From Escherichia coli (GTDB lineage: Bacteria; Pseudomonadota; Gammaproteobacteria; Enterobacterales; Enterobacteriaceae): a DNA stretch of 64,000 nucleotides. The translations under genes were made by a program, and so were the position numbers. Location: NCBI RefSeq assembly GCF_003018255.1, contig NZ_CP027440.1; one strand, given 5' to 3'. The notes under the pieces are model-generated. The model had not been told where the DNA came from and made no database searches. It saw nothing but the letters and a program-made list of their open reading frames with translations. Shown here one piece after another: positions 10,603 to 63,973 of this stretch; the stretch's first letter is position 1, and every line of letters starts with the position of its first letter.

Positions 10603-10610
<8 letters not shown>

Positions 10611-12411
10611 TCGCCTTCTCCTTCTTATTGGCTGCTTCCGCCTTATCGGCTGCATCCGCTTCGCCACCGTAAACACGTTTAGCTGGCGGCAGCGTAGTAA
10701 TCTTCACGTCGCTGTACTCCAGGCGAGTTGTGCCATCAGCATCGCGGAAGGCGAGGGTGTGTTTGAGGAAGTTGACGTCGTCACGCTCGGTGCAACCTTC
10801 GTCCAGACGCTGGTGCGCGCCGCGGGACTCTTTACGTGCCATTGCGGAGTGCGCCATACATTCAGCAACGTTCAGACCGTGGCCCAGCTCAATGGTGTAG
10901 AGCAGGTCGGTGTTGAACACGCTGGAAGTGTCGGTGATGCGCACGCGCTTGAAGCGTTCCTGCAGCTCTGCCAGCTTGTCGATGGTTTTCTGCATCAGTT
11001 CCGGCGTACGGTAGATACCGCAGCCTTCTTCCATGGCCATGCCCATTTCGTCGCGGATCTTAGCCCAGTTTTCGCCGCCATCCTGGTTAACCAGATCTTT
11101 CAGGCGCTGTTCAACGCCAGCAACCTGAGCATTGATTGCTGCATCGTTGCCATTACCGGCAGTAGATGCGCGTTCCATAGCTTGCTCACCGGCCAGACGA
11201 CCGAAGACCACCAGTTCCGCCAGCGAGTTGGAGCCCAGACGGTTCGCACCGTGCAGACCAACAGAGGAACATTCACCCACGGCGAACAGACCTTTAATGC
11301 GGGTTTCACAGTTCTGATCGGTTTCGATACCGCCCATGGTGTAGTGTGCGGTCGGACGTACCGGAATCGGTTCTTTAACCGGATCGACGCCAACGTACGC
11401 TTTCGCCAGTTCGCAGATGAACGGCAGACGTTCATGCAGTTTTTTCTCGCCGAGGTGACGCAGGTCGAGATAAACCACATCGCCACGTGGCGTGGAGATG
11501 GTGTTGCCTTTACGCCATTCGTGCCAGAAGGCCTGAGAAACTTTGTCGCGTGGACCCAGTTCCATATATTTGTTTTTCGGCTCGCCCAGCGGAGTTTCCG
11601 GGCCCATGCCGTAATCTTGCAGATAACGGTAGCCATTTTTGTTGACCAGAATACCACCTTCACCGCGGCAGCCTTCTGTCATCAGGATACCGGAACCGGG
11701 CAGACCGGTTGGGTGATACTGAACGAATTCCATGTCACGCAGCGGAACGCCGTGGCTTAGCGCCATACCCATACCGTCACCGGTAACGATGCCGCCGTTG
11801 GTGTTGTAACGATAAACGCGACCCGCACCGCCGGTAGCCATAACGACCGCGTTAGCACGGATCTGCACCAGCGTGCCTTCCATCATGTTCATTGCTACCA
11901 GGCCGCGAACATGACCATCATCAACCAGAATATCCAGCACGAAATGTTCGTCAAAACGCTGGATCTGCGGGAATTGCAGAGAGGTCTGGAACAGCGTGTG
12001 CAGCATATGGAAGCCGGTCTTATCGGCGGCGAACCAGGTGCGCTCGATTTTCATGCCGCCGAAGCGACGTACGTTGACGCTACCATCCGGGCGACGGCTC
12101 CATGGGCACCCCCACAGTTCCAGTTGGGTCATTTCGGTTGGGCAGTGGTGGACGAAATAATCCACGACATCCTGCTCACACAACCAGTCGCCACCCGCTA
12201 CTGTATCGTGAAAGTGATATTCGAAGCTGTCATGATCCTGCGCGACAGCGGCGGAGCCCCCTTCTGCAGCAACGGTATGGCTACGCATCGGGTATACTTT
12301 TGAGATTAGTGCGATTTTTGCATTTGGATTTGCCTGCGCGGCAGCAATTGCAGCACGTAATCCCGCGCCACCGGCGCCTACAATGGCAAGATCGGCTTGA
12401 AAGGTTTGCAC
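10603..12411 (-). CDS. frdA: Fumarate reductase flavoprotein subunit
   Basis: ORF track 602 aa; [21 protein letters not shown]... recognised as FrdA; overlaps frdB start by 8 nt. Confidence 0.97.
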
Positions 12412-46899: not shown

Positions 46900-47080
46900 A
46901 GTGTAGTGCCTTATTAATTTAACTTTGGGGGAATGTTCCCGAATTGTTACCTGGTACGCGATTTTCGAATGAAAACGTGATGAAAGCGTAACCCACATCT
47001 CAACATTATGAACTAATACCGCCAGCAGAAACTTGTGCTAAGGATTTCTTCATGTCATACCAGACAAAAAGGAGAGACAG

Positions 47081-47830
47081 ATGATTGAAATAGAATCACG
47101 CGAGCTGGCAGATATTCCCGTTCTTCATGCTTATCCTGTCGGGCAAAAAGATACCCCGTTACCGTGCGCGATTTTTTATCACGGCTTTACTTCGTCCAGT
47201 CTGGTGTATAGCTATTTTGCCGTTGCGCTGGCGCAGGCTGGTTTGCGGGTGATCATGCCGGATGCGCCCGATCACGGTAGTCGTTTTAGTGGCGACGCAG
47301 CGCGGCGGTTAAATCAATTCTGGCAAATCTTGCTACAAAGTATGCAGGAATTCACTACTTTACGTGCGGCAATAGCCGAAGAAAACTGGCTGCGTGATGA
47401 CCGTCTGGCAGTCGGTGGCGCGTCGATGGGCGCGATGACGGCACTGGGAATTACCGCTCGCCACTCCACGGTGAAATGTACCGCCAGCATGATGGGATCG
47501 GGCTATTTTACATCGCTCGCCCGTTCACTGTTTCCACCGCTGATACCTGAAACGGCAGCACAGCAGAATGAATTCAATAACATTGTCGCGCCGCTGGCAG
47601 AGTGGGAAGCGACAAACCACCTGGAACAACTTGCTGACAGACCTCTACTGCTGTGGCATGGCCTTGACGATGACGTCGTGCCTGCCGACGAATCACTACG
47701 TTTGCAGCAGGCCTTAAGCGAGACGGGACGGGATAAACTGCTAACCTGTTCATGGCAGCCAGGCGTGCGTCACCGCATTACGCCTGAGGCGTTAGATGCT
47801 GCCGTGACATTTTTCCGCCAGCATCTTTAA
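47081..47830 (+). CDS. yjfP: Alpha/beta-hydrolase esterase YjfP
   Basis: ORF track 249 aa; GASMG nucleophile-elbow motif. Confidence 0.9.
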
Positions 47831-48582
47831 ACACGCAGAATGCTGACCCCTTGCGCTTCCAGTTGTTGCAGGATTTCCGGGTTAGCATTTTTGCCGGTGA
47901 TCAGCATATCGATTTGATCGGCACGGCTAAAAAGCATTCCCGCGCGTTCGCCGATCTTACTGCTATCAACCAGTACCACCAGTTTCCCTACCACGCTTAG
48001 CATCTTCTGCTCTGCCATTGCCGTCAGCATATCGGTTTTATACAACCCTTCTGCTGTCAGCCCTTTGCCGCTGGTAAACATCCAGTGCCCGGCATAGAGA
48101 CTGTTTTCGCTGCCTTGCGGGCTTAAAGTGATGGACTGACTTTTGTTGTACTGTCCGCCCATAATGATCACGCTGTCATGCTCCTGATCGATCAGGTAAT
48201 TTGCCAGCGGTAGATAATTAGTGATGATTTGCACTGGCTTGCCACACATTTCCCGCCCAAGCAGAAACGCGGTGGAGCCGCAGTTGATGACTACGCTTTC
48301 GCCCGGATTAACCAGCTGCGAGGCCGCTTTAGCAATACGTACTTTTTCATCGTGATTCTGCGCCTGATGCAGATTCATCGGCGTCCAGCGTGGGCGCTGC
48401 TGGGTAATAGCTTCTGCGCCATTGCGCACTTTTTTCAGTTTGCCGCTTTCGTCAAGTTTATTGATATCGCGTCGCGCAGTGGCAGGCGAAATTCCCAGAC
48501 GCTCAACGACTTTCTCAACGGTCACAAAGCCCAATTGTGCGAGCATTTCCAGGAGGATTTGATGTCTTTGTGCTTCAGTCAT
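47827..48582 (-). CDS. ulaR: DeoR-family repressor of the ascorbate regulon UlaR
   Basis: ORF track 251 aa; recognised as UlaR. Confidence 0.93.
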
Positions 48583-48689
48583 GAGCTATTCCGATAAAAT
48601 TTGATTTTTTTAGATGATATTTGAAATAGCCAGGAAATACTACGCCGGATAGCGCGAACTACTCCACGCTATCCGGTACAAGCGACAGA

Positions 48690-49754
48690 TTACAGGAACG
48701 ACTTGAACGGCAGATCCGGTTCAATAGTGAAGCAATCATCGAAACCACGCGGATAGTGGTACTCGAAGTTGTCTTTATCCAGCGGCCAGGTAAATTTGCC
48801 GCCGACCTGCCAGATAAACGGCTTGAAGCCATACTTCAGGCGATCTTTTTTCATCTCCCACAGCACGCGGATCTCTTGCGGATCGGCCTGGAAGTTTGAC
48901 CAGATATCGTGGTGGAACGGGATCACTACTTTAGCATTCAGCGCTTCGCCCATACGCAAGATATCAGCACTGGTCATTTTGTCGGTAATACCGCGTGGGT
49001 TTTCGCCGTATGAACCTAAAGCCACGTCGATCTGATGCTCGTTGCCATGTTTTGCATAGTAGTTAGAGTAGTGGGAATCGCCGCTGTGATACAGAGAACC
49101 GCCCGGTGTTTTGAACAGATAGTTTACTGCGCGATCGTCCATGCCGTCTGGCAGCACGCCAGCCGCTTTTTGATCCGCTGGTAGGGTGATCAGTGCAGTA
49201 CGGTCGAACGCGTCAAGGGCATGAATTTCAATGTCTTTCACTTTTACGACATCGCCCGGTTTGACCACGATGCAACGCTCTTTCGGTACGCCCCAGCCAA
49301 TCCATAAATCCACGCAGGTTTTCGGTCCGATAAACGGTACGTCATCAGCACAGTTCTGCATCACGGCAGCAGCGACGTTGACGTCGATATGATCGTTGTG
49401 ATCGTGAGTTGCCAGTACCGCGTCGATCTGGCGAATCGCAAACGGATCAAGAACAAACGGGGTGGTGCGCAGGTTTGGCTGCAGTTTTTTCACGCCAGCC
49501 ATGCGCTGCATCTGGTGACCCTGTTTCATCAGCGGGTTACCGTGACTTTGTTTGCCAGTACCGCACCAGAAATCAACGCAAACGTTGGTGCCACCTTCCG
49601 ATTTCAGCCAGATCCCGGTGCAGCCTAGCCACCACATCGCGAATGTGCCAGGGGCGACCTGCTCTTGTTCAATTTCTTCATTCAGCCAGCTACCCCACTC
49701 CGGGAAAGTGCTCAGGATCCAGGATTCTCGGGTGATACTTTTCACTTTACTCAT
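48690..49754 (-). CDS. ulaG: L-ascorbate-6-phosphate lactonase UlaG
   Basis: ORF track frame; start at [12 protein letters not shown] (ATG revcomp 49752..49754), metallo-beta-lactamase HxHxDH motif. Confidence 0.93.
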
Positions 49755-51506
<1,752 letters not shown>

Positions 51507-51521
51507 TAAGGAGTTTTGATT

Positions 51522-51827
51522 ATGACCGTACGTATTCTGGCTGTGTGTGGCAACGGACAAGGCAGTTCCATGATCATGAAAATGAAAGTGGACCAGTTTT
51601 TAACCCAGTCGAACATTGACCACACGGTAAACAGCTGCGCGGTTGGCGAATACAAAAGCGAGTTGAGCGGCGCGGATATCATCATCGCTTCTACCCATAT
51701 TGCGGGCGAAATCACTGTGACCGGCAACAAATATGTGGTTGGCGTGCGCAATATGCTCTCTCCTGCCGACTTTGGCCCGAAATTGCTGGAAGTGATCAAA
51801 GAGCATTTTCCGCAGGACGTGAAGTAA
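51522..51827 (+). CDS. ulaB: Ascorbate PTS EIIB
   Basis: ORF track frame; start at ATG 51522 ([16 protein letters not shown]), 101 aa. Confidence 0.95.
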
Positions 51828-51836
51828 GGACGCGCC

Positions 51837-52301
51837 ATGAAATTACGTGATTCGCTGGCGGAGAATAAATCCATCCGCCTGCAGGCTGAAGCTGAGACAT
51901 GGCAGGACGCAGTAAAAATCGGCGTTGACCTGCTGGTGGCGGCGGATGTTGTCGAGCCGCGTTACTACCAGGCGATTCTGGATGCGGTTGAACAGCACGG
52001 TCCGTACTTTGTGCTCGCACCCGGCCTGGCAATGCCGCACGGTCGCCCGGAAGAGGGCGTTAAGAAAACCGGTTTTGCGCTGGTGACGCTGAAAAAGCCG
52101 CTGGAGTTCAACCACGAAGATAACGATCCGGTGGATATCCTCATCACCATGGCGGCGGTCGATGCCAACACTCACCAGGAAGTGGGCATCATGCAGATCG
52201 TCAATCTGTTTGAAGATGAAGAGAATTTCGACCGTTTACGTGCCTGCCGTACCGAGCAGGAAGTACTGGATCTCATTGACCGCACCAACGCGGCAGCTTA
52301 A
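51837..52301 (+). CDS. ulaC: Ascorbate PTS EIIA
   Basis: ORF track 154 aa. Confidence 0.95.
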
Positions 52302-52314
52302 GAAGGAATTGAAA

Positions 52315-52965
52315 ATGTCATTACCGATGTTGCAGGTCGCGCTGGACAACCAGACTATGGATAGCGCCTATGAAACCACTCGCCTGATTGCCGAAGAAGT
52401 CGACATTATCGAAGTGGGTACCATTCTGTGCGTGGGCGAAGGCGTGCGTGCGGTTCGCGATCTGAAAGCGCTTTACCCGCACAAAATCGTACTGGCAGAC
52501 GCCAAAATTGCCGATGCGGGCAAAATCCTTTCTCGTATGTGCTTCGAAGCTAACGCTGACTGGGTGACCGTGATTTGCTGTGCGGATATCAACACAGCTA
52601 AAGGTGCGCTGGACGTGGCAAAAGAGTTTAACGGCGACGTGCAGATCGAACTGACCGGTTACTGGACCTGGGAACAGGCGCAACAGTGGCGCGACGCAGG
52701 CATTGGGCAGGTGGTTTATCACCGCAGCCGTGACGCACAGGCCGCAGGTGTGGCGTGGGGCGAAGCGGACATTACCGCGATCAAACGTCTTTCCGATATG
52801 GGCTTCAAAGTCACCGTCACCGGTGGTCTGGCGCTGGAAGATCTGCCGTTGTTTAAAGGCATTCCGATTCATGTGTTTATCGCTGGTCGCAGCATTCGTG
52901 ATGCCGCTTCTCCGGTGGAGGCCGCACGTCAGTTCAAACGTTCCATCGCTGAACTGTGGGGCTAA
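52315..52965 (+). CDS. ulaD: 3-keto-L-gulonate-6-phosphate decarboxylase UlaD
   Basis: ORF track frame; start at ATG 52315 ([19 protein letters not shown]), 216 aa. Confidence 0.95.
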
Positions 52966-52974
52966 GGAGCGGAT

Positions 52975-53829
52975 ATGTTGTCCAAACAAATCCCGCTTGG
53001 CATCTATGAAAAAGCGCTCCCCGCCGGGGAGTGCTGGCTGGAACGGCTGCAACTGGCAAAAACGTTAGGCTTCGATTTTGTCGAGATTTCGGTAGATGAA
53101 ACGGACGATCGCCTGTCGCGCCTCGACTGGAGCCGCGAGCAGCGTCTGGCGCTGGTGAACGCGATTGTTGAAACCGGCGTGCGCGTGCCGTCCATGTGCC
53201 TTTCTGCTCATCGTCGTTTCCCGCTGGGCAGCGAAGATGACGCAGTGCGGGCGCAGGGGCTGGAGATTATGCGCAAAGCTATCCAGTTCGCCCAGGATGT
53301 CGGTATTCGCGTGATCCAACTGGCGGGCTACGACGTTTACTATCAGGAAGCCAATAACGAAACGCGTCGTCGTTTCCGTGACGGCCTGAAAGAGAGCGTT
53401 GAGATGGCAAGCCGCGCGCAGGTGACGCTGGCGATGGAGATCATGGATTACCCGTTGATGAACTCCATCAGCAAGGCGCTGGGTTACGCGCACTATCTTA
53501 ACAACCCGTGGTTCCAGCTCTACCCGGATATCGGCAACTTGTCGGCGTGGGACAACGACGTGCAGATGGAGTTGCAGGCCGGGATCGGGCATATCGTCGC
53601 GGTGCATGTGAAAGACACCAAACCAGGCGTCTTCAAAAACGTCCCGTTTGGCGAAGGTGTAGTGGATTTCGAACGTTGCTTCGAAACGCTCAAACAGAGT
53701 GGTTATTGCGGGCCGTACCTGATTGAGATGTGGAGCGAAACGGCGGAAGACCCGGCGGCAGAAGTGGCGAAAGCGCGTGATTGGGTGAAAGCGCGCATGG
53801 CCAAAGCCGGCATGGTGGAGGCGGCATAA
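52975..53829 (+). CDS. ulaE: L-ribulose-5-phosphate 3-epimerase UlaE
   Basis: ORF track 284 aa. Confidence 0.95.
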
Positions 53830-54515
53830 TGCAAAAGCTAAAACAGCAGGTATTTGAAGCCAATATGGATCTGCCGCGCTACGGGCTGGTGACCTTTACC
53901 TGGGGCAACGTCAGCGCCATTGACCGCGAACGCGGGCTGGTGGTGATCAAGCCCAGCGGCGTTGCCTACGAAACCATGAAAGCAGACGATATGGTGGTGG
54001 TTGATATGAGCGGCAAGGTGGTGGAAGGGGAGTATCGTCCGTCTTCCGACACCGCGACGCATCTTGAACTCTACCGCCGTTATCCGTCGCTTGGCGGCAT
54101 TGTCCATACCCATTCCACGCATGCCACCGCATGGGCGCAGGCGGGGCTGGCTATCCCGGCATTAGGCACCACGCACGCTGACTACTTCTTTGGCGATATC
54201 CCCTGTACGCGCGGGTTAAGCGAAGAAGAAGTGCAGGGGGAATACGAGCTAAACACTGGCAAAGTGATTATCGAAACGCTGGGTGACGCCGAGCCGCTGC
54301 ATACGCCGGGAATTGTGGTGTATCAGCACGGGCCATTCGCCTGGGGGAAAGATGCTCACGATGCGGTGCATAACGCGGTGGTGATGGAAGAAGTGGCGAA
54401 AATGGCGTGGATTGCCCGCGGCATTAACCCGCAACTGAATCACATCGACAGCTATCTCATGAATAAACACTTCATGCGTAAGCACGGTCCCAACGCCTAT
54501 TACGGGCAGAAGTAA
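53829..54515 (+). CDS. ulaF: L-ribulose-5-phosphate 4-epimerase UlaF
   Basis: ORF track frame; start at ATG 53829 overlapping the ulaE stop (TAATG), 228 aa. Confidence 0.95.
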
Positions 54516-57087: not shown

Positions 57088-57579
57088 ATGGGTAAAAAAA
57101 CAGCACCGTTACTCCCTTATACGAATCAGATGCTTAGTGAATTTGGTGAGCGGCTGAAACTTGCTCGTTTACGACGCAGGCTTACCGCAAAGCAAGTTGC
57201 TGAACGTGCTGGGATGTCGCCAATAACATTGCGCTCTCTGGAGTCAGGAAGTGCAGGGGTCACGATAGGGGCATATTTGTCTGTGATGCAGGTTTTGGGC
57301 CTGGAAACGGATTTAAATAAGCTTGCAGCTGAAGACGACTTAGGGCGTCAGCTCCAGGATTCCCGTTTGATTAAAAAAAGAGGGCTTTCTCGTGCATCAA
57401 GTAAGAATGAAGAAGGTTCTCAGACAGCCTCATTGCAGATGAGGCACGAGAAAGAAGGTCATCTCACCACGGATTTAACAGCACTGGCAGAAGGCTCGAC
57501 GCCATCTATTACAGGAGAAACATCAACCTCTCTTGCAGCACTATTAAAACCGATAAAAAAACCGTTAAAAGGAAATTAA
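57088..57579 (+). CDS. XRE-family helix-turn-helix protein with extended Ser/Thr-rich C-terminal tail; putative HipB-like antitoxin/repressor
   Basis: ORF track 163 aa; N-terminal region ([32 protein letters not shown]) has the XRE/Cro-type HTH pattern; stop lies 2 nt before the kinase start. Confidence 0.7.
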
Positions 57580-57581
57580 TT

Positions 57582-58850
57582 ATGGCATTAATCGGAGTGT
57601 ATGCGGATTGGGAAGGCCTGGATGGTCCGGAGCGGATTGGTTATTTACACAGTCGCCGCACTCGGACGCGTGAGATATTTGAGTTTGAGTACGATAAAAA
57701 GGCGCTTGCAGATCCTTCACTTAATTTCATTCAGTTAGATCCTGAAATAATGTTGTATGAGGGAGCACACTACCCAATTCCTCCAAAGGATAAATTTGGT
57801 GCATTTAGTGATTCCTGCCCGGATCGTTGGGGGCGTATGCTAATGAAGCGTCGTTTTGAGAGGGATATTCGAGACGGGTTATGTGATAAAGACTCCCACC
57901 TTTATGAGTCTGATTATCTACTAGGTGTTCATGATCTTTATCGGGTTGGGGCCCTTCGATACAAACGTGAAGACGCTGGAGAGTTTCTTGATAATCGCAT
58001 TGATGTTGCAGCCCCACCATTTACCGAAATAGCGAGTCTGGAAAGGGCTAGCCGGGCAATTGAAGAAGATCCTGATAATAAAGAGCTAATGGGGCAAAAA
58101 TGGTTAAGAATGCTAATCGCTCCGGGGGGATCATTAGGGGGGGCACGTCCGAAAGCCAGTGTTGTTGATGAAGCTGGGCATCTCTACATCGCTAAATTTC
58201 CCAGTGTAAAAGATGAGTATGATGTTGGTGGATGGGAAATGGCCGTTAATGCACTTGCTGTTGGCTGTGGACTGAATGTTGCACCTGCTCAGGCGCATAA
58301 ATTTGCCAGCAATTACCATTGTTTTATGGTTCGTCGTTTTGACCGCACTAATGCGGGAAGGCGTCTGCATTTTGCTTCGGCTATGACACTAACCAGGCAT
58401 CAGGATGGTGAAGATGCCTCTACAGGTGTGAGTTATCTGGAATTAGCAGATGTTCTTATCAGGCATGGCGCGCAGACTAATACTGATCTTAAGGAACTCT
58501 GGTCCAGGATTGTTTTTAATATTCTTGTTTCTAATACCGATGATCATTTACGCAATCATGGATTTATCTTGATACCAGGAAAAGGTTGGCGGCTTTCTGA
58601 GGCATATGATTTGAATCCTGTGGTCAGGTCTGATGGTTTAAAACTCAATATTACGGAAAATGACAATGCACTTGATTTGGAATTAGCTAGAGAAGTTGCA
58701 GAGTATTTTCGACTTAGTTTGACGGAAGCTGATGACATTATTGCTAATTTTAGAGGGATTGTCAGTCAGTGGCGAATCATTGCCGAGCGTCTGAGATTAC
58801 CTGGTCGTGAGCAAGAGTTAATGGCAGAGGCATTCAGAGCGTCAATTTAG
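57582..58850 (+). CDS. HipA-family serine/threonine kinase (putative toxin)
   Basis: ORF track 422 aa; HipA-like motifs GGARPK (res ~186-191), NTDDHLRNHG (res ~318-327), AYD (res ~341-343) and N-terminal SDSCPDRWGR resembling the HipA N-subdomain; RBS aaaagga. Confidence 0.75.
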   Translation: MALIGVYADWEGLDGPERIGYLHSRRTRTREIFEFEYDKKALADPSLNFIQLDPEIMLYEGAHYPIPPKDKFGAFSDSCPDRWGRMLMKRRFERDIRDGLCDKDSHLYESDYLLGVHDLYRVGALRYKREDAGEFLDNRIDVAAPPFTEIASLERASRAIEEDPDNKELMGQKWLRMLIAPGGSLGGARPKASVVDEAGHLYIAKFPSVKDEYDVGGWEMAVNALAVGCGLNVAPAQAHKFASNYHCFMVRRFDRTNAGRRLHFASAMTLTRHQDGEDASTGVSYLELADVLIRHGAQTNTDLKELWSRIVFNILVSNTDDHLRNHGFILIPGKGWRLSEAYDLNPVVRSDGLKLNITENDNALDLELAREVAEYFRLSLTEADDIIANFRGIVSQWRIIAERLRLPGREQELMAEAFRASI

Positions 58851-58948
58851 AATAGTTATTTCGATATATTCGCTAAATCATAAATTTGCGAAGCAATGCC
58901 AGTAGATACTGAACGTTTTGGAAGAGACGTTTAATTTATGAGAAAAAT

Positions 58949-58981
58949 AGAAACGCTACAAAGCTAAATTATAGCGTTTCT
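58949..58981. terminator. Perfect 10-bp stem hairpin between convergent kinase gene and MFS gene
   Basis: agaaacgcta / tagcgtttct with 13-nt loop; T-rich run follows on the minus strand, so probably the MFS operon terminator. Confidence 0.55.
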
Positions 58982-58992
58982 ATGTAAAATAA

Positions 58993-60270
58993 TTAGCTTG
59001 TCGCTAACTGTACTTGTGGTTCTTCGTCTTTAACTTTGATAAGCATCCACAGCGCAATGGCGCCAATAATGTCAAAGAAAGCCAGGGCAATAAAGAACGG
59101 CGCGAAGCCAATAATGTGAACGAATGCCCCGATAAACAGGTTGAAAATCAACTGACCGCTCCATGCACAGGCTCCTGCCATACCCACAGCGGTAGCTACT
59201 TCGTCTTTTTTGAATAGGTCACCGCCCAGAGTTGCTGCAACAGTAGAAAGACATTGATGCGAGAATGCGCCAATGCTAATCAGTAATACGGCGATGTAGG
59301 GATTTTCGACAATACTCACCAGACCAATCGTCATCATAATGACGGCTGCAATAGTGAAGGTAATTCTTCGTGAGTTAATTAAACTCACGCCGCGATCGTG
59401 GAAGAACTTCGCGACAAAACCACTGGCTAAACAGCCGAGATCGCCCAGCAGGAAAGGTAGCCAGACGAACATGGCAATTTCTTTCAGGCTAAAATGCAGC
59501 GTTTCGACGAAGAAAATCGGTACCCAGAAGTTAATGGTTCCCCATGCCGGGTCAGCGAGAAAACGCGCGATGCCAATCCCCCAGAAATTACGTTGGCTGA
59601 GGATATGCTTGATTGACGTTTTTTCTTTCTTATCTGTTTTAAGATGCTGTTCTTGCCCAGACTCAATATAGTGGCGCTCTTCATCAGAAAGGCGTTTAGC
59701 ATCTTTTGGATCTTTATAACAAAAGAACCAAAATAAAGCCGCGAGTAAAGCAAGGCTACCTGAGACAATAAACGCAAATTGCCAGCTATGAAACATAATG
59801 CACCAGGCAATCAACGGTGGAGCAAGCATCGCGCCGAGTGAGGTGCCCATATTGAAAACACCTGTCGCCACGCCACGCTCTTTTGCCGGGAACCATGTTG
59901 ATGCGGTTTTTACACCCGCAGGAATTGCCGATGCTTCGCTGAAACCCATCAGGGCGCGCATAAATGCCAGACCTGACCATGTTCCTGTCAAGGCATGCCC
60001 CATTGTCGCCAGGCCCCAGATTGCGGCACATATCGCAAAACTTAACTTCAGACCCACGGTATCAATAAAGAAGCCCATTATCGGTTGCCCCAATGTATAG
60101 GCCAACTGGAATGCACTGACAATCCATGAATATTGTTCTTTGGTTATTCCGGTTGTCTCCATAATCGTTGGAGCCGCAATACCTAACGCCGTTCTGTCCA
60201 GATAATTGATTACAGTGATAAAGCATACGAGGGCAATCATATGCCATCGATAATTCTTTATTTTATTCAT
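58993..60270 (-). CDS. MFS transporter, probably anion:cation symporter (ACS) type
   Basis: ORF track 425 aa; about 12 predicted hydrophobic helices; N-terminal NYLDRT motif resembling ExuT/DgoT-type carriers. Confidence 0.75.
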   Translation of the reverse strand: MNKIKNYRWHMIALVCFITVINYLDRTALGIAAPTIMETTGITKEQYSWIVSAFQLAYTLGQPIMGFFIDTVGLKLSFAICAAIWGLATMGHALTGTWSGLAFMRALMGFSEASAIPAGVKTASTWFPAKERGVATGVFNMGTSLGAMLAPPLIAWCIMFHSWQFAFIVSGSLALLAALFWFFCYKDPKDAKRLSDEERHYIESGQEQHLKTDKKEKTSIKHILSQRNFWGIGIARFLADPAWGTINFWVPIFFVETLHFSLKEIAMFVWLPFLLGDLGCLASGFVAKFFHDRGVSLINSRRITFTIAAVIMMTIGLVSIVENPYIAVLLISIGAFSHQCLSTVAATLGGDLFKKDEVATAVGMAGACAWSGQLIFNLFIGAFVHIIGFAPFFIALAFFDIIGAIALWMLIKVKDEEPQVQLATS

Positions 60271-60362: not shown

Positions 60363-62435
60363 TTATTGTGTGTAAATGTCTCCCTTTAAAAAATCTGGCC
60401 AGTTTTTTTCAAAGTAAATACCGTTAATACACGGTTGCATACGTAAAGACTTTACTTCGGTAATAAAAGAACCTTGCGAATATTGAATTGTTAATTTGTG
60501 ATTTTTGTCTTCAGCGAGTTCAGAGCGAAAACGCCATTCTTCTTTTGCGCCGCGACGAGTTTGTGGTAGGCATTTGCCTTGTGGATCAATAACCATACGC
60601 GCCCCACGGCTACCACCACCAGCATCAATATAATGCGTTAATTGTGTTAATACCGCGGCAGAAGTCAGCGCCATATGCCGCCACATAAACAGCTCGGCAA
60701 CTTCACCCACATGTTTGATTGCCAATCCATGCCGTTGGACAAATTCGTTCAATAGCAGGGCATCACGAGTGGCACGTCGGACTTTATCGGCATGGCAAAT
60801 AAATCCCGCATAGTCAGACATTCGTGCCTGAATTTTTTCTCTCACAACCGACAACGGCATCCCGGTCCCGTTATCGTGCGCCTGAGTAATGATCTCTCTT
60901 ATAGAAGCCAGTGCCGGAGCTACCAGCTGTGCTATATCTCCATCAATATTACGTTTTTGCGTGCAACCAATAAAACGTGCCAGACGAACAGCAAAAACCT
61001 GCCCGGCATTCAATGCCGCACCACCAGGGCGAGTGACGCCGTGTGTGCCAGCAACTTCCCCCACGGCGAAACAGCCGGGCAGGGAGGTTTGTCCCCAGAT
61101 ATCCACTTCAATGCCGCCATTCATATGCTGATTATTCATGGCAAACTGCAAAGGCTGTGTGGTGAGATCGTAACCGTGCATCTTATACAGCGAGATAGAC
61201 AGCGGATTCATTCGTTGCAGCCGTTCGATGGGCGATGGTGCCAGAGCGTCGTTATTTTCCAGATACGCGCGAACGTCGTCGTCCAGTCGATCTAATGAGA
61301 AGGGCAGGTCACCCGGCACCGCTTCAGGATTGCGATTGAAATCCATAAATACCTGACGCCCTGATTGCTGCTCTTGCGCTACAGCCATATCTAACAAGCT
61401 GGAGCCAAACTCCATTACCCGAGTGGCGTGGAACGGCCACTGATAGCCTTTACGAAAAATGTTTGAAGCCAGCTCCTGGGTGGTGCGATAGTAATCCGCG
61501 AGGAAGTTATACTCGTTGCCCCCGGCATCCACGGAATAGATATGTGGGATCACCTGCACATAGGTGCCGGACAAATTCCACGGAAACGTGCTGCGCGGTG
61601 TGCCTATACCAAACTGGCTTTCAGTCAAATTGGTTAGCGTCAGACCTTCTTCCAGCGCCAGCCCCAGCGAGCCGAAACATTTGTGTGGGTACACACTGTC
61701 GCGATAAAGCTCGCCAGGCCCTCCTGTTGCCAGTACCACATTGGGCGCAATCACAATTGCCAGCCCCCATGGGTTATGGACGCGATGACCGGTCGCGAGG
61801 ATAGCCCCCGCCACGCGGTCTTCGCCGTTTTCGTCACGCTGATGCAGCAGTTTAATCACTGTTGCACTGGTCAACATTGGGATAGCAAGACGCTGTACTT
61901 CTTCCAGCAGCACTTTCACCATTAACCTTGAGGTACGTGGCCCACACGAGGTTGCACGCCCGGCTTCGTCATGGTCGGTTTGATAACGAAGAATCGCACC
62001 ATAGCGATCTTCCGGTAATTCCAGACCAAGATATTGCAACCCGCCAAGAGTGTGCAGAGAACCTACCGCTTCGACATAAGCAGTGTCGTGATCCATCGCC
62101 CCACCACTCGCCAGTGCCTCTGCCAGTTTGGTGAAGTTGTCGCCGTTGCCCGCGGTAGCGGCGGTAAACAGCGTCTGTTTATCGGAACCGGAGCAGGCCG
62201 ATGTTCCCATGTATAACCCGGCGGTGGCGATTAACACATTTTGCTGGCGGCGTTTAAGTTCCACAGCTGCACGCAGCCCGGCTGCACCACTGCCGACTAC
62301 CAGGGCATCTGTTTGCCAAAGTGGGTAATCAACACCGTCTACCGTGACAACCCATGCGGGTTCTGCCTGTGCAAAACCCTTTGGGAAAGTAACGTGCGTC
62401 AGCGCATCAAGGATGGTGTCATCAAGCTGACTCAT
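60363..62435 (-). CDS. FAD-dependent oxidoreductase, fumarate reductase/succinate dehydrogenase flavoprotein-like
   Basis: ORF track 690 aa; dinucleotide-binding VVGSGAAGLRAA and FrdA-like segment CFAVGEVAGTHGVTRPGGAALNAGQVF; ATG overlaps the upstream stop (ATGA). Confidence 0.7.
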   Translation of the reverse strand: MSQLDDTILDALTHVTFPKGFAQAEPAWVVTVDGVDYPLWQTDALVVGSGAAGLRAAVELKRRQQNVLIATAGLYMGTSACSGSDKQTLFTAATAGNGDNFTKLAEALASGGAMDHDTAYVEAVGSLHTLGGLQYLGLELPEDRYGAILRYQTDHDEAGRATSCGPRTSRLMVKVLLEEVQRLAIPMLTSATVIKLLHQRDENGEDRVAGAILATGHRVHNPWGLAIVIAPNVVLATGGPGELYRDSVYPHKCFGSLGLALEEGLTLTNLTESQFGIGTPRSTFPWNLSGTYVQVIPHIYSVDAGGNEYNFLADYYRTTQELASNIFRKGYQWPFHATRVMEFGSSLLDMAVAQEQQSGRQVFMDFNRNPEAVPGDLPFSLDRLDDDVRAYLENNDALAPSPIERLQRMNPLSISLYKMHGYDLTTQPLQFAMNNQHMNGGIEVDIWGQTSLPGCFAVGEVAGTHGVTRPGGAALNAGQVFAVRLARFIGCTQKRNIDGDIAQLVAPALASIREIITQAHDNGTGMPLSVVREKIQARMSDYAGFICHADKVRRATRDALLLNEFVQRHGLAIKHVGEVAELFMWRHMALTSAAVLTQLTHYIDAGGGSRGARMVIDPQGKCLPQTRRGAKEEWRFRSELAEDKNHKLTIQYSQGSFITEVKSLRMQPCINGIYFEKNWPDFLKGDIYTQ

Positions 62436-63973
62436 GCATCCTCCATCGGCGTAAACAGGCTACTTTCCATCAGGCGTGGGTGCTTGATAATTGGACGGAA
62501 AGCCATATACGGCAGAATGTCGCGCTCAATCTCCACACCCGGCGCGATTTCAATTAATTCAACGCCTTCTGCCGTTAACTGGAATACTGCGCGTTCAGTG
62601 ATATACAGCACTTCCTGACCACTTTGCTGTGCGTAGGCGGCGCTAAAAGTGATTTTTTCCACTTGGGTAACCAGTTTAGGGATTTGACCTGACTGGGCGA
62701 TATGCAGGCCATCAGGCGTTACATCAATCTTGCTGCCTTTGGCGTCAAACGTACCGCAGAACACCACTTTACGGGCGTTTTGCGCAATTTCGAGGAAGCC
62801 GCCGGGGCCAATGAGATTGCCATTGAGATGGGATACGTTGACGTTACCGTACCGATCCATCTCTCCCATGCCGAGGAAGGTGATATCGATACCGCCGCCA
62901 CTGTAGAATTCGAATTGATCGAGTGATGGAATAATGGCGTCGGCGTTACGGGCGCAGCCGAACAGAGCATCATCCAGCATCATGCCGTTATGTACGCCTT
63001 GCTCGACGCTCATCCATAAACTTTGATAAGGCACGCCTTCGCGCAGCGCAACCCCAGGAATACCGCCCGGAATACCAAAGCCAAAGTTGGTTGAAGCGCC
63101 TGCCACCAGTTCCCGTGCTGCCCGACGGGCAATCAGGCGACGCACCGGATGACTAACCAGTTCAATAGCGTCGTTAGAACTTAGACGGCGATGTTGACCG
63201 CTGATCGTCAGGTCGTAACCGCCAAGATAGGTTTGCGGTTGTTCGCGGTGTTCAACGATACCATCGACCAGAATCCCCGGTAGCTTGACCTTGCGAGGTT
63301 CAATGGCGCCAGCTTCCAGTACATCGCGCACCTGTACAAACACTTTGCCGCCACTGTTGTGTGCTGCCAGCGCCATCGAATAGCTATCCATATCAATCGC
63401 TTCTTCTTCGAGGCTAACGTTGCCACGCGGATCGGCATAGGTGCCGCGCAAAATCGCGTAGTCCACTTTGAAAGGGCGATAGCGGAGTTTGGTTTCACCG
63501 TCGATTTCAATCAGTTCTACCAGGTCGTCGGTCGTGCATTCATTCGACTTACCGCCACCATTGCGTGGATCAACAAACGATCCCAGCCCAACGTGGGTAA
63601 AAAGCCCCGGACGTCCGGCACCGATCTCCCGCAGCAGTGCCTGAATTACGCCACCAGGGAAACAGTAGGCTTCAATAGCATTGCTTTTCACCAGTTCCTG
63701 CATCTTGGGCGACCAGGTAAAATGTCCGGCAATAATGCGTTTGAGCATTTCGGCGTGAGCAAAACGGTTAGTGCCTTTGCTGTCGCGATCGCCAATACCC
63801 AGCGAGTGGATTAATGTCAGATCGCGCGGGTGTCCGGTTTGCAGGAAACGCGCTTCAATGGCGGCCATAATATGGTCAGCTTCCACCATACCGCCGCCGT
63901 TACCGCTAATGGCAATGGTTGCGCCGTCCTGAATTTGCGCCGCCAGTGTCTCGGCGGTTGATAACTTACGCAT
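62432..63973 (-). CDS. Fused two-domain acyl-CoA:acetate/3-ketoacid CoA-transferase (YdiF-like)
   Basis: ORF track 513 aa; strong resemblance to E. coli YdiF along its whole length by recall; RBS aggaaa; promoter lies beyond the window end. Confidence 0.75.
   Translation of the reverse strand: MRKLSTAETLAAQIQDGATIAISGNGGGMVEADHIMAAIEARFLQTGHPRDLTLIHSLGIGDRDSKGTNRFAHAEMLKRIIAGHFTWSPKMQELVKSNAIEAYCFPGGVIQALLREIGAGRPGLFTHVGLGSFVDPRNGGGKSNECTTDDLVELIEIDGETKLRYRPFKVDYAILRGTYADPRGNVSLEEEAIDMDSYSMALAAHNSGGKVFVQVRDVLEAGAIEPRKVKLPGILVDGIVEHREQPQTYLGGYDLTISGQHRRLSSNDAIELVSHPVRRLIARRAARELVAGASTNFGFGIPGGIPGVALREGVPYQSLWMSVEQGVHNGMMLDDALFGCARNADAIIPSLDQFEFYSGGGIDITFLGMGEMDRYGNVNVSHLNGNLIGPGGFLEIAQNARKVVFCGTFDAKGSKIDVTPDGLHIAQSGQIPKLVTQVEKITFSAAYAQQSGQEVLYITERAVFQLTAEGVELIEIAPGVEIERDILPYMAFRPIIKHPRLMESSLFTPMEDA

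Follow-up and report, generated by a model that had tools for sequence, protein, structure and literature searches.

Why should a strain of Escherichia coli that already possesses FrdA, SdhA and NadB encode a further flavoprotein of the same fold, without partner subunits and in translational coupling with a coenzyme A (CoA)-transferase? This is the question raised by the gene located at 60363..62435 on the minus strand of a stretch of 64,000 nucleotides of contig NZ_CP027440.1 (assembly GCF_003018255.1), which in its whole length is referred to here as the window. From an ATG start the gene specifies a stand-alone flavin adenine dinucleotide (FAD) flavoprotein of 690 amino acids (aa), which adopts the NadB/SdhA/FrdA fold and is a member of a hitherto uncharacterised clade. 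The answer toward which the evidence tilts, albeit slightly, is that the gene product is a cytoplasmic, single-subunit enzyme with non-covalently held FAD, that its substrate is a sugar-acid or carbohydrate intermediate and not fumarate, succinate or aspartate, and that the operon to which it belongs takes up and degrades a hexuronate-like acid.

Fold, active site and length of the flavoprotein

The AlphaFold model of the flavoprotein (pLDDT 92.5) consists of a single chain with four domains (FAD-binding, capping, helical and C-terminal), an architecture that is common to FrdA and SdhA, and its top Foldseek neighbours are FrdA, SdhA and NadB, with FrdA/SdhA being the best at TM 0.66/0.78. Pfam analysis of the protein returned FAD_binding_2 at residues 43-475 and a fragment of Pyr_redox_2, and nothing else. 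None of the curated NCBIfam models reaches its cut-off on the flavoprotein and all stay far below it, as the scores amount to 125 bits against a cut-off of 718 for TfrA, 99-105 against 452-639 for NadB, and 80 against 567, 43 against 854 and 45 against 727 for the SdhA/FrdA models TIGR01812, PRK09231 and TIGR01816, respectively; the best sequence match in the PDB has an E-value of 7e-9. Clear orthology to a characterised enzyme, which would have refuted the original prediction, does not emerge from these values.

The roles of individual residues in fumarate reductases were taken from the literature (10.1101/2022.01.20.477176), and their counterparts in the flavoprotein were located through three independent sequence alignments, a mapping that is based on sequence profiles and not on structural superposition. 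Just one of the seven fumarate-binding and proton-relay residues is retained, namely FrdA Arg390, which corresponds to the invariant Arg469. FrdA His232 is replaced by the clade-invariant Gly276, His355 by the invariant Gln436 with an invariant His437 next to it, Thr244 by Gln294 and Glu245 by Val295; Arg248 is opposite a gap, and the region of Arg287 is unconserved in the alignment. At the position of His44, the residue that binds FAD covalently in FrdA, the flavoprotein has no histidine (segment GTSACSGSDKQ), nor does the clade consensus for this segment, GTSRNTGSDKQT. The check for a covalent-FAD histidine, proposed together with the original prediction, thereby gave a negative outcome, and the FAD of the flavoprotein is predicted to be bound non-covalently.

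The residues that took the place of the fumarate site are themselves strictly conserved. All 62 of the 62 invariant columns in a 50-sequence alignment of the clade are present in the flavoprotein, which also displays each of the clade motifs GSDKQT, YxTD, QxG, WNxSG, KGYxWP, QHxNGG and RPGG. The clade-invariant residues include G48xG50, S79, G83-S-D-K-Q-T88, Y151/T153/D154 and Q274/G276, and further along the chain W286/N287/S289/G290, K329/Y331/W333, Q436/H437 and R469; many of these have aromatic or polar side chains of the kind often met in carbohydrate sites. Judged by its sequence the flavoprotein is not a fumarate reductase, and its active site is one that was rebuilt on a fumarate-reductase scaffold. 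The description 'FrdA/SdhA-like' consequently holds for the fold, as borne out by AlphaFold and Foldseek, and fails for the function, since the fumarate site is gone, so that it should be read as a fold label only.

The length of the protein had been noted as unusual, and the figures of 690 aa for the flavoprotein and 602 aa for the FrdA of the same window (10603..12411, minus strand, approximately 48 kb away) are both accurate. The flavoprotein reading frame is intact over all 690 aa, its ATG (62435-62433) shares 4 nt with the TGA of the CoA-transferase gene (ATGA at 62432-62435), and a Shine-Dalgarno-like GGAGGA (62439..62444, minus strand) is located 3 nt 5′ of this ATG, within the end of the CoA-transferase gene. 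RefSeq annotates an identical coding sequence of 2073 nt in E. coli genomes, and the alignments to homologues, at 77-98% identity, extend over 100% of the flavoprotein's length. The start-codon overlap, the GGAGGA, the RefSeq annotation and the end-to-end coverage by homologues together argue that the long N-terminus is real. An N-terminal extension had been held responsible for the extra length, and although the extension exists it explains under half of the 88-aa excess over FrdA: a profile alignment pairs flavoprotein residues 38-623 with residues 2-543 of the window's FrdA, which leaves approximately 37 aa at the N-terminus, some 44 aa in core insertions (mainly in the capping domain) and about 8 aa at the C-terminus. 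The GSGAAG motif, previously placed around residue 46, is indeed present and occupies residues 48-53. Only residues 1-30 are specific to the proteobacterial subgroup (column occupancy there is 14-38%) and form a helix and a beta-hairpin in the AlphaFold model, with pLDDT values of 84-97. Neither a signal peptide, for which a check had been recommended, nor a transmembrane segment was found in the flavoprotein, as its maximal 19-aa hydropathy of 1.38 falls within a Rossmann strand; taken with the lack of partner-subunit genes and the confident single-chain model, this agrees with the earlier view of a soluble stand-alone protein.

Comparison with the known branches of the superfamily sets the flavoprotein apart from each. 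NadB, the L-aspartate oxidase, is likewise a stand-alone member of the SdhA/FrdA superfamily, but the flavoprotein is approximately 150 aa longer and carries Gly276 and Gln436 in place of the histidines of the HPT and HYxxGG motifs of NadB, so that it does not qualify as a NadB; moreover, NadB functions in the context of NAD biosynthesis, whereas the flavoprotein gene resides in what appears to be a sugar-acid operon. As compared to FrdA and SdhA it lacks the covalent-FAD histidine, the FrdB/C/D partners and, with the exception of Arg469, the dicarboxylate and proton-relay residues. The soluble NADH:2-enoate reductases, represented by FRD of Klebsiella pneumoniae, ARD of Vibrio harveyi and the cinnamate reductase of Vibrio ruber, combine an old yellow enzyme (OYE)-like domain with FMN_bind as well as FAD_binding_2, and in these enzymes altered residues in Motifs I-III of the FAD_binding_2 domain set the specificity for substrates other than fumarate (10.1101/2022.01.20.477176, 10.1101/2023.03.04.531086). 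No FMN_bind, OYE-like or cytochrome domain, as would mark a system of the FRD/ARD/Crd/UrdA type, was detected by Pfam or among the operon genes of the flavoprotein system, and the OYE partnering of the 2-enoate reductases is echoed only in a distant branch of the clade, described below.

The operon, its transporters and the company kept by the clade

The CoA-transferase gene (62432..63973, minus strand) specifies a fused family-I protein of 513 aa of the YdiF/FadX/Pct-like type, and the window ends 27 nt upstream of its start. In the closest complete genome, which is 98.4% identical over the operon, the genes beyond the CoA-transferase encode an enoyl-CoA hydratase (ECH), a TIM-barrel protein and a short-chain dehydrogenase/reductase (SDR), with gene gaps of 9 nt in this upstream part, and past the SDR a divergent TetR regulator (TetR_C_29) adjoins ytfB. 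On the other side a 92-nt gap separates the flavoprotein gene from the last gene of the operon, which encodes a major facilitator superfamily (MFS) transporter of 425 aa (58993..60270, minus strand) that belongs to the anion:cation symporter family and is a paralogue of ExuT. A terminator-like hairpin (58947..58983, minus strand), composed of a 15-bp stem and a subsequent T-run and beginning 10 nt after the MFS stop codon, is likely to represent the 3′ end of the operon. The order of genes between rplI and ytfB is therefore TetR / SDR-TIM-ECH-CoA-transferase-flavoprotein-transporter, with the flavoprotein encoded by the fifth gene. The immediate neighbours thus proved to be a CoA-transferase (Pfam CoA_trans) and an MFS transporter (Pfam MFS_1), and no FrdB/C/D-like, iron-sulfur or membrane-anchor gene occurs anywhere in the operon, in accordance with the absence of such partners claimed at the outset; OYE and ApbE genes are absent from the operon as well.

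The transporters give an indication of what the operon acts on. The window MFS protein shares 47% identity over 99% of its length with the hexuronate transporter ExuT of E. coli K-12, as compared to 24-28% with DgoT, LgoT and GudP. In a second form of the operon, present in E. coli 13KWH46 (L091 3074-12845; also in L008), the MFS gene is replaced by the DctQMP genes of a tripartite ATP-independent periplasmic (TRAP) transporter, whose binding protein, WP_000695886.1, has its best PDB relatives, at 230-243 bits, in 4ovr, 4x8r, 4n8y, 4n15, 4n91 and 4mij/4mhf. According to the literature 4N8Y binds galacturonate and 4X8R binds glucuronate (PMC11668362), and the ligand of 4N91 and 4MHF is given as glucuronate or as both glucuronate and galacturonate (PMC7660916). 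Since two unrelated types of transporter agree in this respect, we infer that the substrate of the operon is a hexuronate-like sugar acid. The enzyme genes of the TRAP form are approximately 92% identical to those of the MFS form, and in the window the G+C content of the MFS gene is approximately 42-47% as compared to 53-55% for the enzyme genes; a swap of the transporter cassette fits both the lower G+C of the MFS gene and the existence of two operon forms.

An exhaustive HMMER search over 1.84 billion cluster representatives placed the flavoprotein in a clade of 412 clusters (50% identity) at E<1e-30, with a typical length of 620-700 aa; among the names seen for its homologues none is more specific than 'FAD-binding protein'. 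Relatives were encountered by genome scan in Enterobacteriaceae, Rhizobiales, Rhodobacteraceae, Betaproteobacteria, Planctomycetota/Phycisphaerae and Lentisphaerae, as well as in Verrucomicrobia, Bacteroidia, Clostridia, Aminicenantes and Desulfobacterales. The genomic context was surveyed for approximately 80 loci of clade members, and the genes that recur are those of sugar catabolism: a levoglucosan dehydrogenase (LGDH)-like member of the Gfo/Idh/MocA dehydrogenases (31 loci; the levoglucosan dehydrogenase model is matched with 306 bits), SDR (29), LacI (21), paired glucose-methanol-choline (GMC) oxidoreductases (21), sugar ATP-binding cassette (ABC) transporters (20), a KdgK-like kinase (17), 2-keto-3-deoxy-6-phosphogluconate (KDPG) aldolase (15, including one aldolase/kinase fusion that passes its model cut-off) and AP_endonuc_2 TIM-barrel proteins (12). 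The SDR of E. coli scores 420 bits against model PRK12745 (cut-off 250 bits) and that of the loci from Planctomycetota, Verrucomicrobiota and relatives scores 326, and because both pass this model the SDR and the flavoprotein can be regarded as an orthologous pair across phyla. From the recurrent neighbours and the pairing with the SDR, the clade is assigned to routes of carbohydrate breakdown with 2-keto-3-deoxy acids as their end-point, as opposed to fumarate respiration.

In the branch at 36-41% identity, and only there, an orthologous OYE-like flavoprotein adjoins the clade gene in 18 loci, a count obtained after re-checking by phmmer and with exclusion of the GltD-like flanking genes of Pseudescherichia/Phytobacter. 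The association extends to a natural fusion of 1084 aa (P0152), in which an OYE-like Oxidored_FMN domain is joined to the clade flavoprotein, and in Phycisphaerae (L075 4043-6688) the neighbouring OYE gene has approximately 880 codons and encodes a C-terminal GltD-like NAD(P)H/Fe-S module. The OYE protein may feed electrons to the FAD enzyme or may be a separate ene-reductase. Elsewhere among the distant relatives, the permease that follows an OYE-flavoprotein-SDR trio in a metagenome-assembled genome (MAG) of Bacteroidia (L086 12952-14214) passes the L-fucose:H+ symporter model (324 bits, cut-off 280), and on one metagenome contig (L007 655-2049) a GH4 glycosidase gene precedes the clade flavoprotein gene.

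Coenzyme A coupling and alternative explanations

The coupling to a CoA-transferase had been singled out as atypical for this family, and it is both real, as evidenced by the 4-nt overlap, and rare within the clade, being present in 4 of approximately 80 loci outside the enterobacterial operon. Neither a CoA-transferase nor a hydratase occurs in about 70 of the roughly 80 loci, and the nearest relatives outside the enterobacterial operon, in Brenneria, in the Pseudescherichia/Phytobacter/Mangrovibacter group and on Succinatimonas-like contigs with a TRAP transporter, retain TetR, SDR, TIM-barrel protein, flavoprotein and a transporter and are devoid of CoA genes. Both genes are found near the clade gene in Devosia, in Rubellimicrobium, in a Desulfobacterales MAG, where acyl-CoA dehydrogenases and MaoC are encoded as well, and on a Rhizobium plasmid, where an operon on a single strand specifies a CoA-transferase, a hydratase, an aldehyde dehydrogenase, an ABC transporter and two GMC oxidoreductases, followed by an LGDH-like dehydrogenase, the flavoprotein, a KdgK-like kinase and an aldolase. 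As the CoA coupling is lineage-specific, we favour a flavoprotein that acts on a free sugar acid and regard the CoA module as accessory.

The same observations bear on the proposal that the flavoprotein acts on CoA esters, the CoA-transferase activating an acid, the hydratase dehydrating it and the flavoprotein reducing or forming the enoyl-CoA or the released enoate, as an electron sink comparable to CaiB/CaiD/CaiA or the acrylate pathway. We consider this unlikely, although the ATGA overlap, the hydratase gene directly upstream, the recurrence of both genes in the four lineages named above and a CoA-transferase of a type that acts on short acids all speak for it: the loci without CoA genes include the nearest non-enterobacterial relatives, the clade keeps the arginine that binds the free carboxylate in FrdA and NadB, and the use of CoA thioesters is not known for any of the superfamily members surveyed. 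More doubtful still is a ring desaturase resembling KstD or cyclohexanone dehydrogenase and directed at an alicyclic hydroxy-acid such as a quinate, shikimate or cyclohexanecarboxylate derivative, in which case the SDR would serve as ring alcohol dehydrogenase, the TIM-barrel protein as dehydratase (as do 3-dehydroshikimate dehydratases) and the CoA-transferase and hydratase in Bad-like processing; the two-domain fold of KstD and cyclohexanone dehydrogenase is devoid of the helical domain of SdhA, which is not what the flavoprotein model displays. Finally, it is highly improbable that the protein is a soluble paralogue of fumarate reductase, succinate dehydrogenase or L-aspartate oxidase that has diverged and serves in redox balancing, as its structural neighbours, the FAD_binding_2 domain and the name 'succinate dehydrogenase flavoprotein subunit' given to some database homologues are outweighed by the replacement of 6 of 7 fumarate/proton-relay residues with clade-invariant ones, by scores 5-20 times under every curated cut-off, by the position of the gene in a TetR-regulated, transporter-bearing catabolic operon and by the FrdA, SdhA and NadB with which E. 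coli is already equipped.

Several considerations weigh against a free sugar acid as the substrate, the reading preferred here. No biochemical or genetic data were found for any member of the clade, and the residue mapping was obtained with profile alignments at approximately 17-24% identity, in which the equivalent of Arg287 is especially uncertain. Among the operon genes no obvious candidate stands out that would donate electrons to the flavin or accept them from it, and given how tightly the flavoprotein gene is coupled to that of the CoA-transferase, a CoA thioester could be what the enzyme acts on after all. E. coli degrades glucuronate and galacturonate through UxaC/UxuAB/UxaAB, and with this route already present the true substrate is probably another uronate or a uronate derivative. 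Transporter types vary between clades (sugar ABC, FucP-like, other MFS and TRAP), and the substrate may therefore differ between them, so that distant clade members may act on a neutral or a deoxy sugar rather than a uronate; likewise, what is seen around homologues of 36-58% identity may not hold for E. coli.

Possible chemistry, distribution and significance

For an enzyme that acts on a free sugar acid the scaffold permits a mechanism to be sketched. Arg469, the sole retained anchor, would with Gln436 and His437 hold the carboxylate or carbonyl of the substrate over the flavin, a hydride would pass between the flavin N5 and the carbon beta to that group, and protonation would take place at the alpha carbon, with proton transfer carried out by clade-specific residues of the capping domain instead of the Arg287/Glu245/Arg248 relay of FrdA. 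The enzyme might in this manner add or remove a C=C or an enol beside the carboxylate or carbonyl of a uronate-derived intermediate, such a desaturation or ene-reduction being suggested by the scaffold together with the retention of Arg469 and the reactions known from this superfamily. The co-conserved SDR may adjust a keto group and the TIM-barrel protein may epimerise or isomerise the product, and the end-point would likely be a 2-keto-3-deoxygluconate (KDG)-type 2-keto-3-deoxy acid that could be consumed by the cell's own KdgK/Eda. The added CoA-transferase and hydratase could provide catalytic activation of the acid, as CaiB/CaiD do for carnitine, or could process a small acid product. Which bond is attacked, and with which redox partner, is a matter of speculation; by analogy with NadB, the use of quinone, fumarate or O2 by the flavoprotein is possible. 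Single chemical schemes were also considered for all contexts together, namely 1,5-anhydro sugars, inositol-like compounds, C4-C5 dehydrogenation of uronates and a redox-neutral dehydration by FAD enzyme plus OYE, and none of them fits every context.

Two groups of known pathways resemble parts of the operon. With the hexuronate catabolism of E. coli (ExuT, UxaC, UxuAB, UxaAB) it has in common an ExuT-paralogous or hexuronate-type TRAP transporter, but unlike that system it contains no UxaC, UxuA or UxaA homologue. The likeness to oxidation-elimination sugar pathways, such as the levoglucosan pathway (PMC7676230), consists of the SDR/Gfo dehydrogenases and AP_endonuc_2 TIM barrels among the neighbours of the clade genes and of the probable KDG-type end-point. 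It is conceivable, albeit doubtful at present, that the clade, the SDR and the TIM-barrel or OYE protein constitute an undescribed flavin-dependent route from sugars or uronic acids to 2-keto-3-deoxy acids without a classical isomerase or dehydratase, and that the enterobacterial form proceeds via a transient CoA thioester and a crotonase-catalysed beta-elimination, as in CaiB/CaiD. We know of no hexuronate or oxidation-elimination pathway that uses an FAD_binding_2 flavoprotein, a CoA-transferase or a crotonase. Should such an enterobacterial route via a CoA thioester exist, it would be a CoA-dependent hexuronate pathway without precedent, one that most E. coli strains possess and that was overlooked because K-12 deleted it.

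The operon, counting both forms together, is carried by 3,159 of 5,426 complete E. coli genomes (approximately 58%), with the MFS form in 1,656 (coverage >=80%) and the TRAP form in approximately 1,480. Salmonella enterica and Klebsiella oxytoca harbour the same operon at the same rplI-ytfB locus with approximately 78% protein identity (79% for the flavoprotein orthologue of Klebsiella michiganensis or K. oxytoca), and this shared position indicates that the locus is an old enterobacterial one and not a recent island. When the operon's TetR gene (L001 19727-20374) was compared with ytfA of K-12 MG1655 (L097 4427694-4428095), this pseudogene was found to correspond to TetR residues 83-215, that is, to 133 C-terminal codons at 99% identity, and next to it 48 codons of the SDR gene survive as a trace. 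As only these ytfA (TetR) and SDR remnants persist, K-12 must have deleted the whole operon, and the space that it formerly occupied is now filled by yjfZ. Decay is also seen in some TRAP-form operons of E. coli/Shigella (L092 9001-11960), where 207 codons are left of the TIM-barrel gene and the CoA-transferase gene is broken up into open reading frames of 151 and 339 codons. In rare entries of 1043-1078 aa (P0004, P0030) a portion of the CoA-transferase is fused with the flavoprotein, probably as a consequence of mutations where the two genes overlap by 4 nt.

From frd through rplI the window is in synteny with the E. coli chromosome, and directly upstream of rpsF-priB-rpsR-rplI it has, like K-12, the L-ascorbate (ula) operon together with yjfP (47000-54515). 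Between rplI and the operon, on the plus strand at 57088-58850 and convergent with the MFS gene, a helix-turn-helix protein (HipB-like, 163 aa) and a HipA_C-domain kinase (422 aa; 44 bits against the cut-off of 401 of the YjjJ model) are encoded. The two genes resemble an inserted type II toxin-antitoxin module; the Klebsiella and Salmonella loci lack them and have an EamA gene in their place.

A literature search turned up no paper on the operon or the clade. The PDB relatives of the TIM-barrel protein (3qc0, 3ju2, which is SMc04130, and 7vpf) are unannotated structural-genomics entries, those of the SDR (4da9, 4one) are likewise uncharacterised, and for the TIM-barrel protein a search of 5.8 billion proteins yielded only 'sugar phosphate isomerase/epimerase' names. 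A deoxyribonate acyl-CoA cluster of Klebsiella michiganensis (PMC6365646) was considered as a counterpart of the operon and set aside, as it consists of different genes (CoA synthetase, hydroxyacyl-CoA dehydrogenase, thiolase and glycerate kinase). That the function of the operon has gone unassigned is largely due to its loss from K-12, in which only the ytfA pseudogene was kept.

The flavoprotein described here is the founding representative from E. coli of a clade whose several hundred clusters extend over Proteobacteria, the Planctomycetota-Verrucomicrobiota group, Bacteroidia and Firmicutes, and many strains of Salmonella and of the Klebsiella oxytoca group carry the operon as well. If the substrate of the flavoprotein were found, a textbook enzyme superfamily would gain a new reaction, and the evidence from the transporters shrinks the candidates to a short, testable list. 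Identification of this substrate could also reveal a nutrient niche of gut and urinary-tract E. coli that is based on host- or diet-derived uronic acids.

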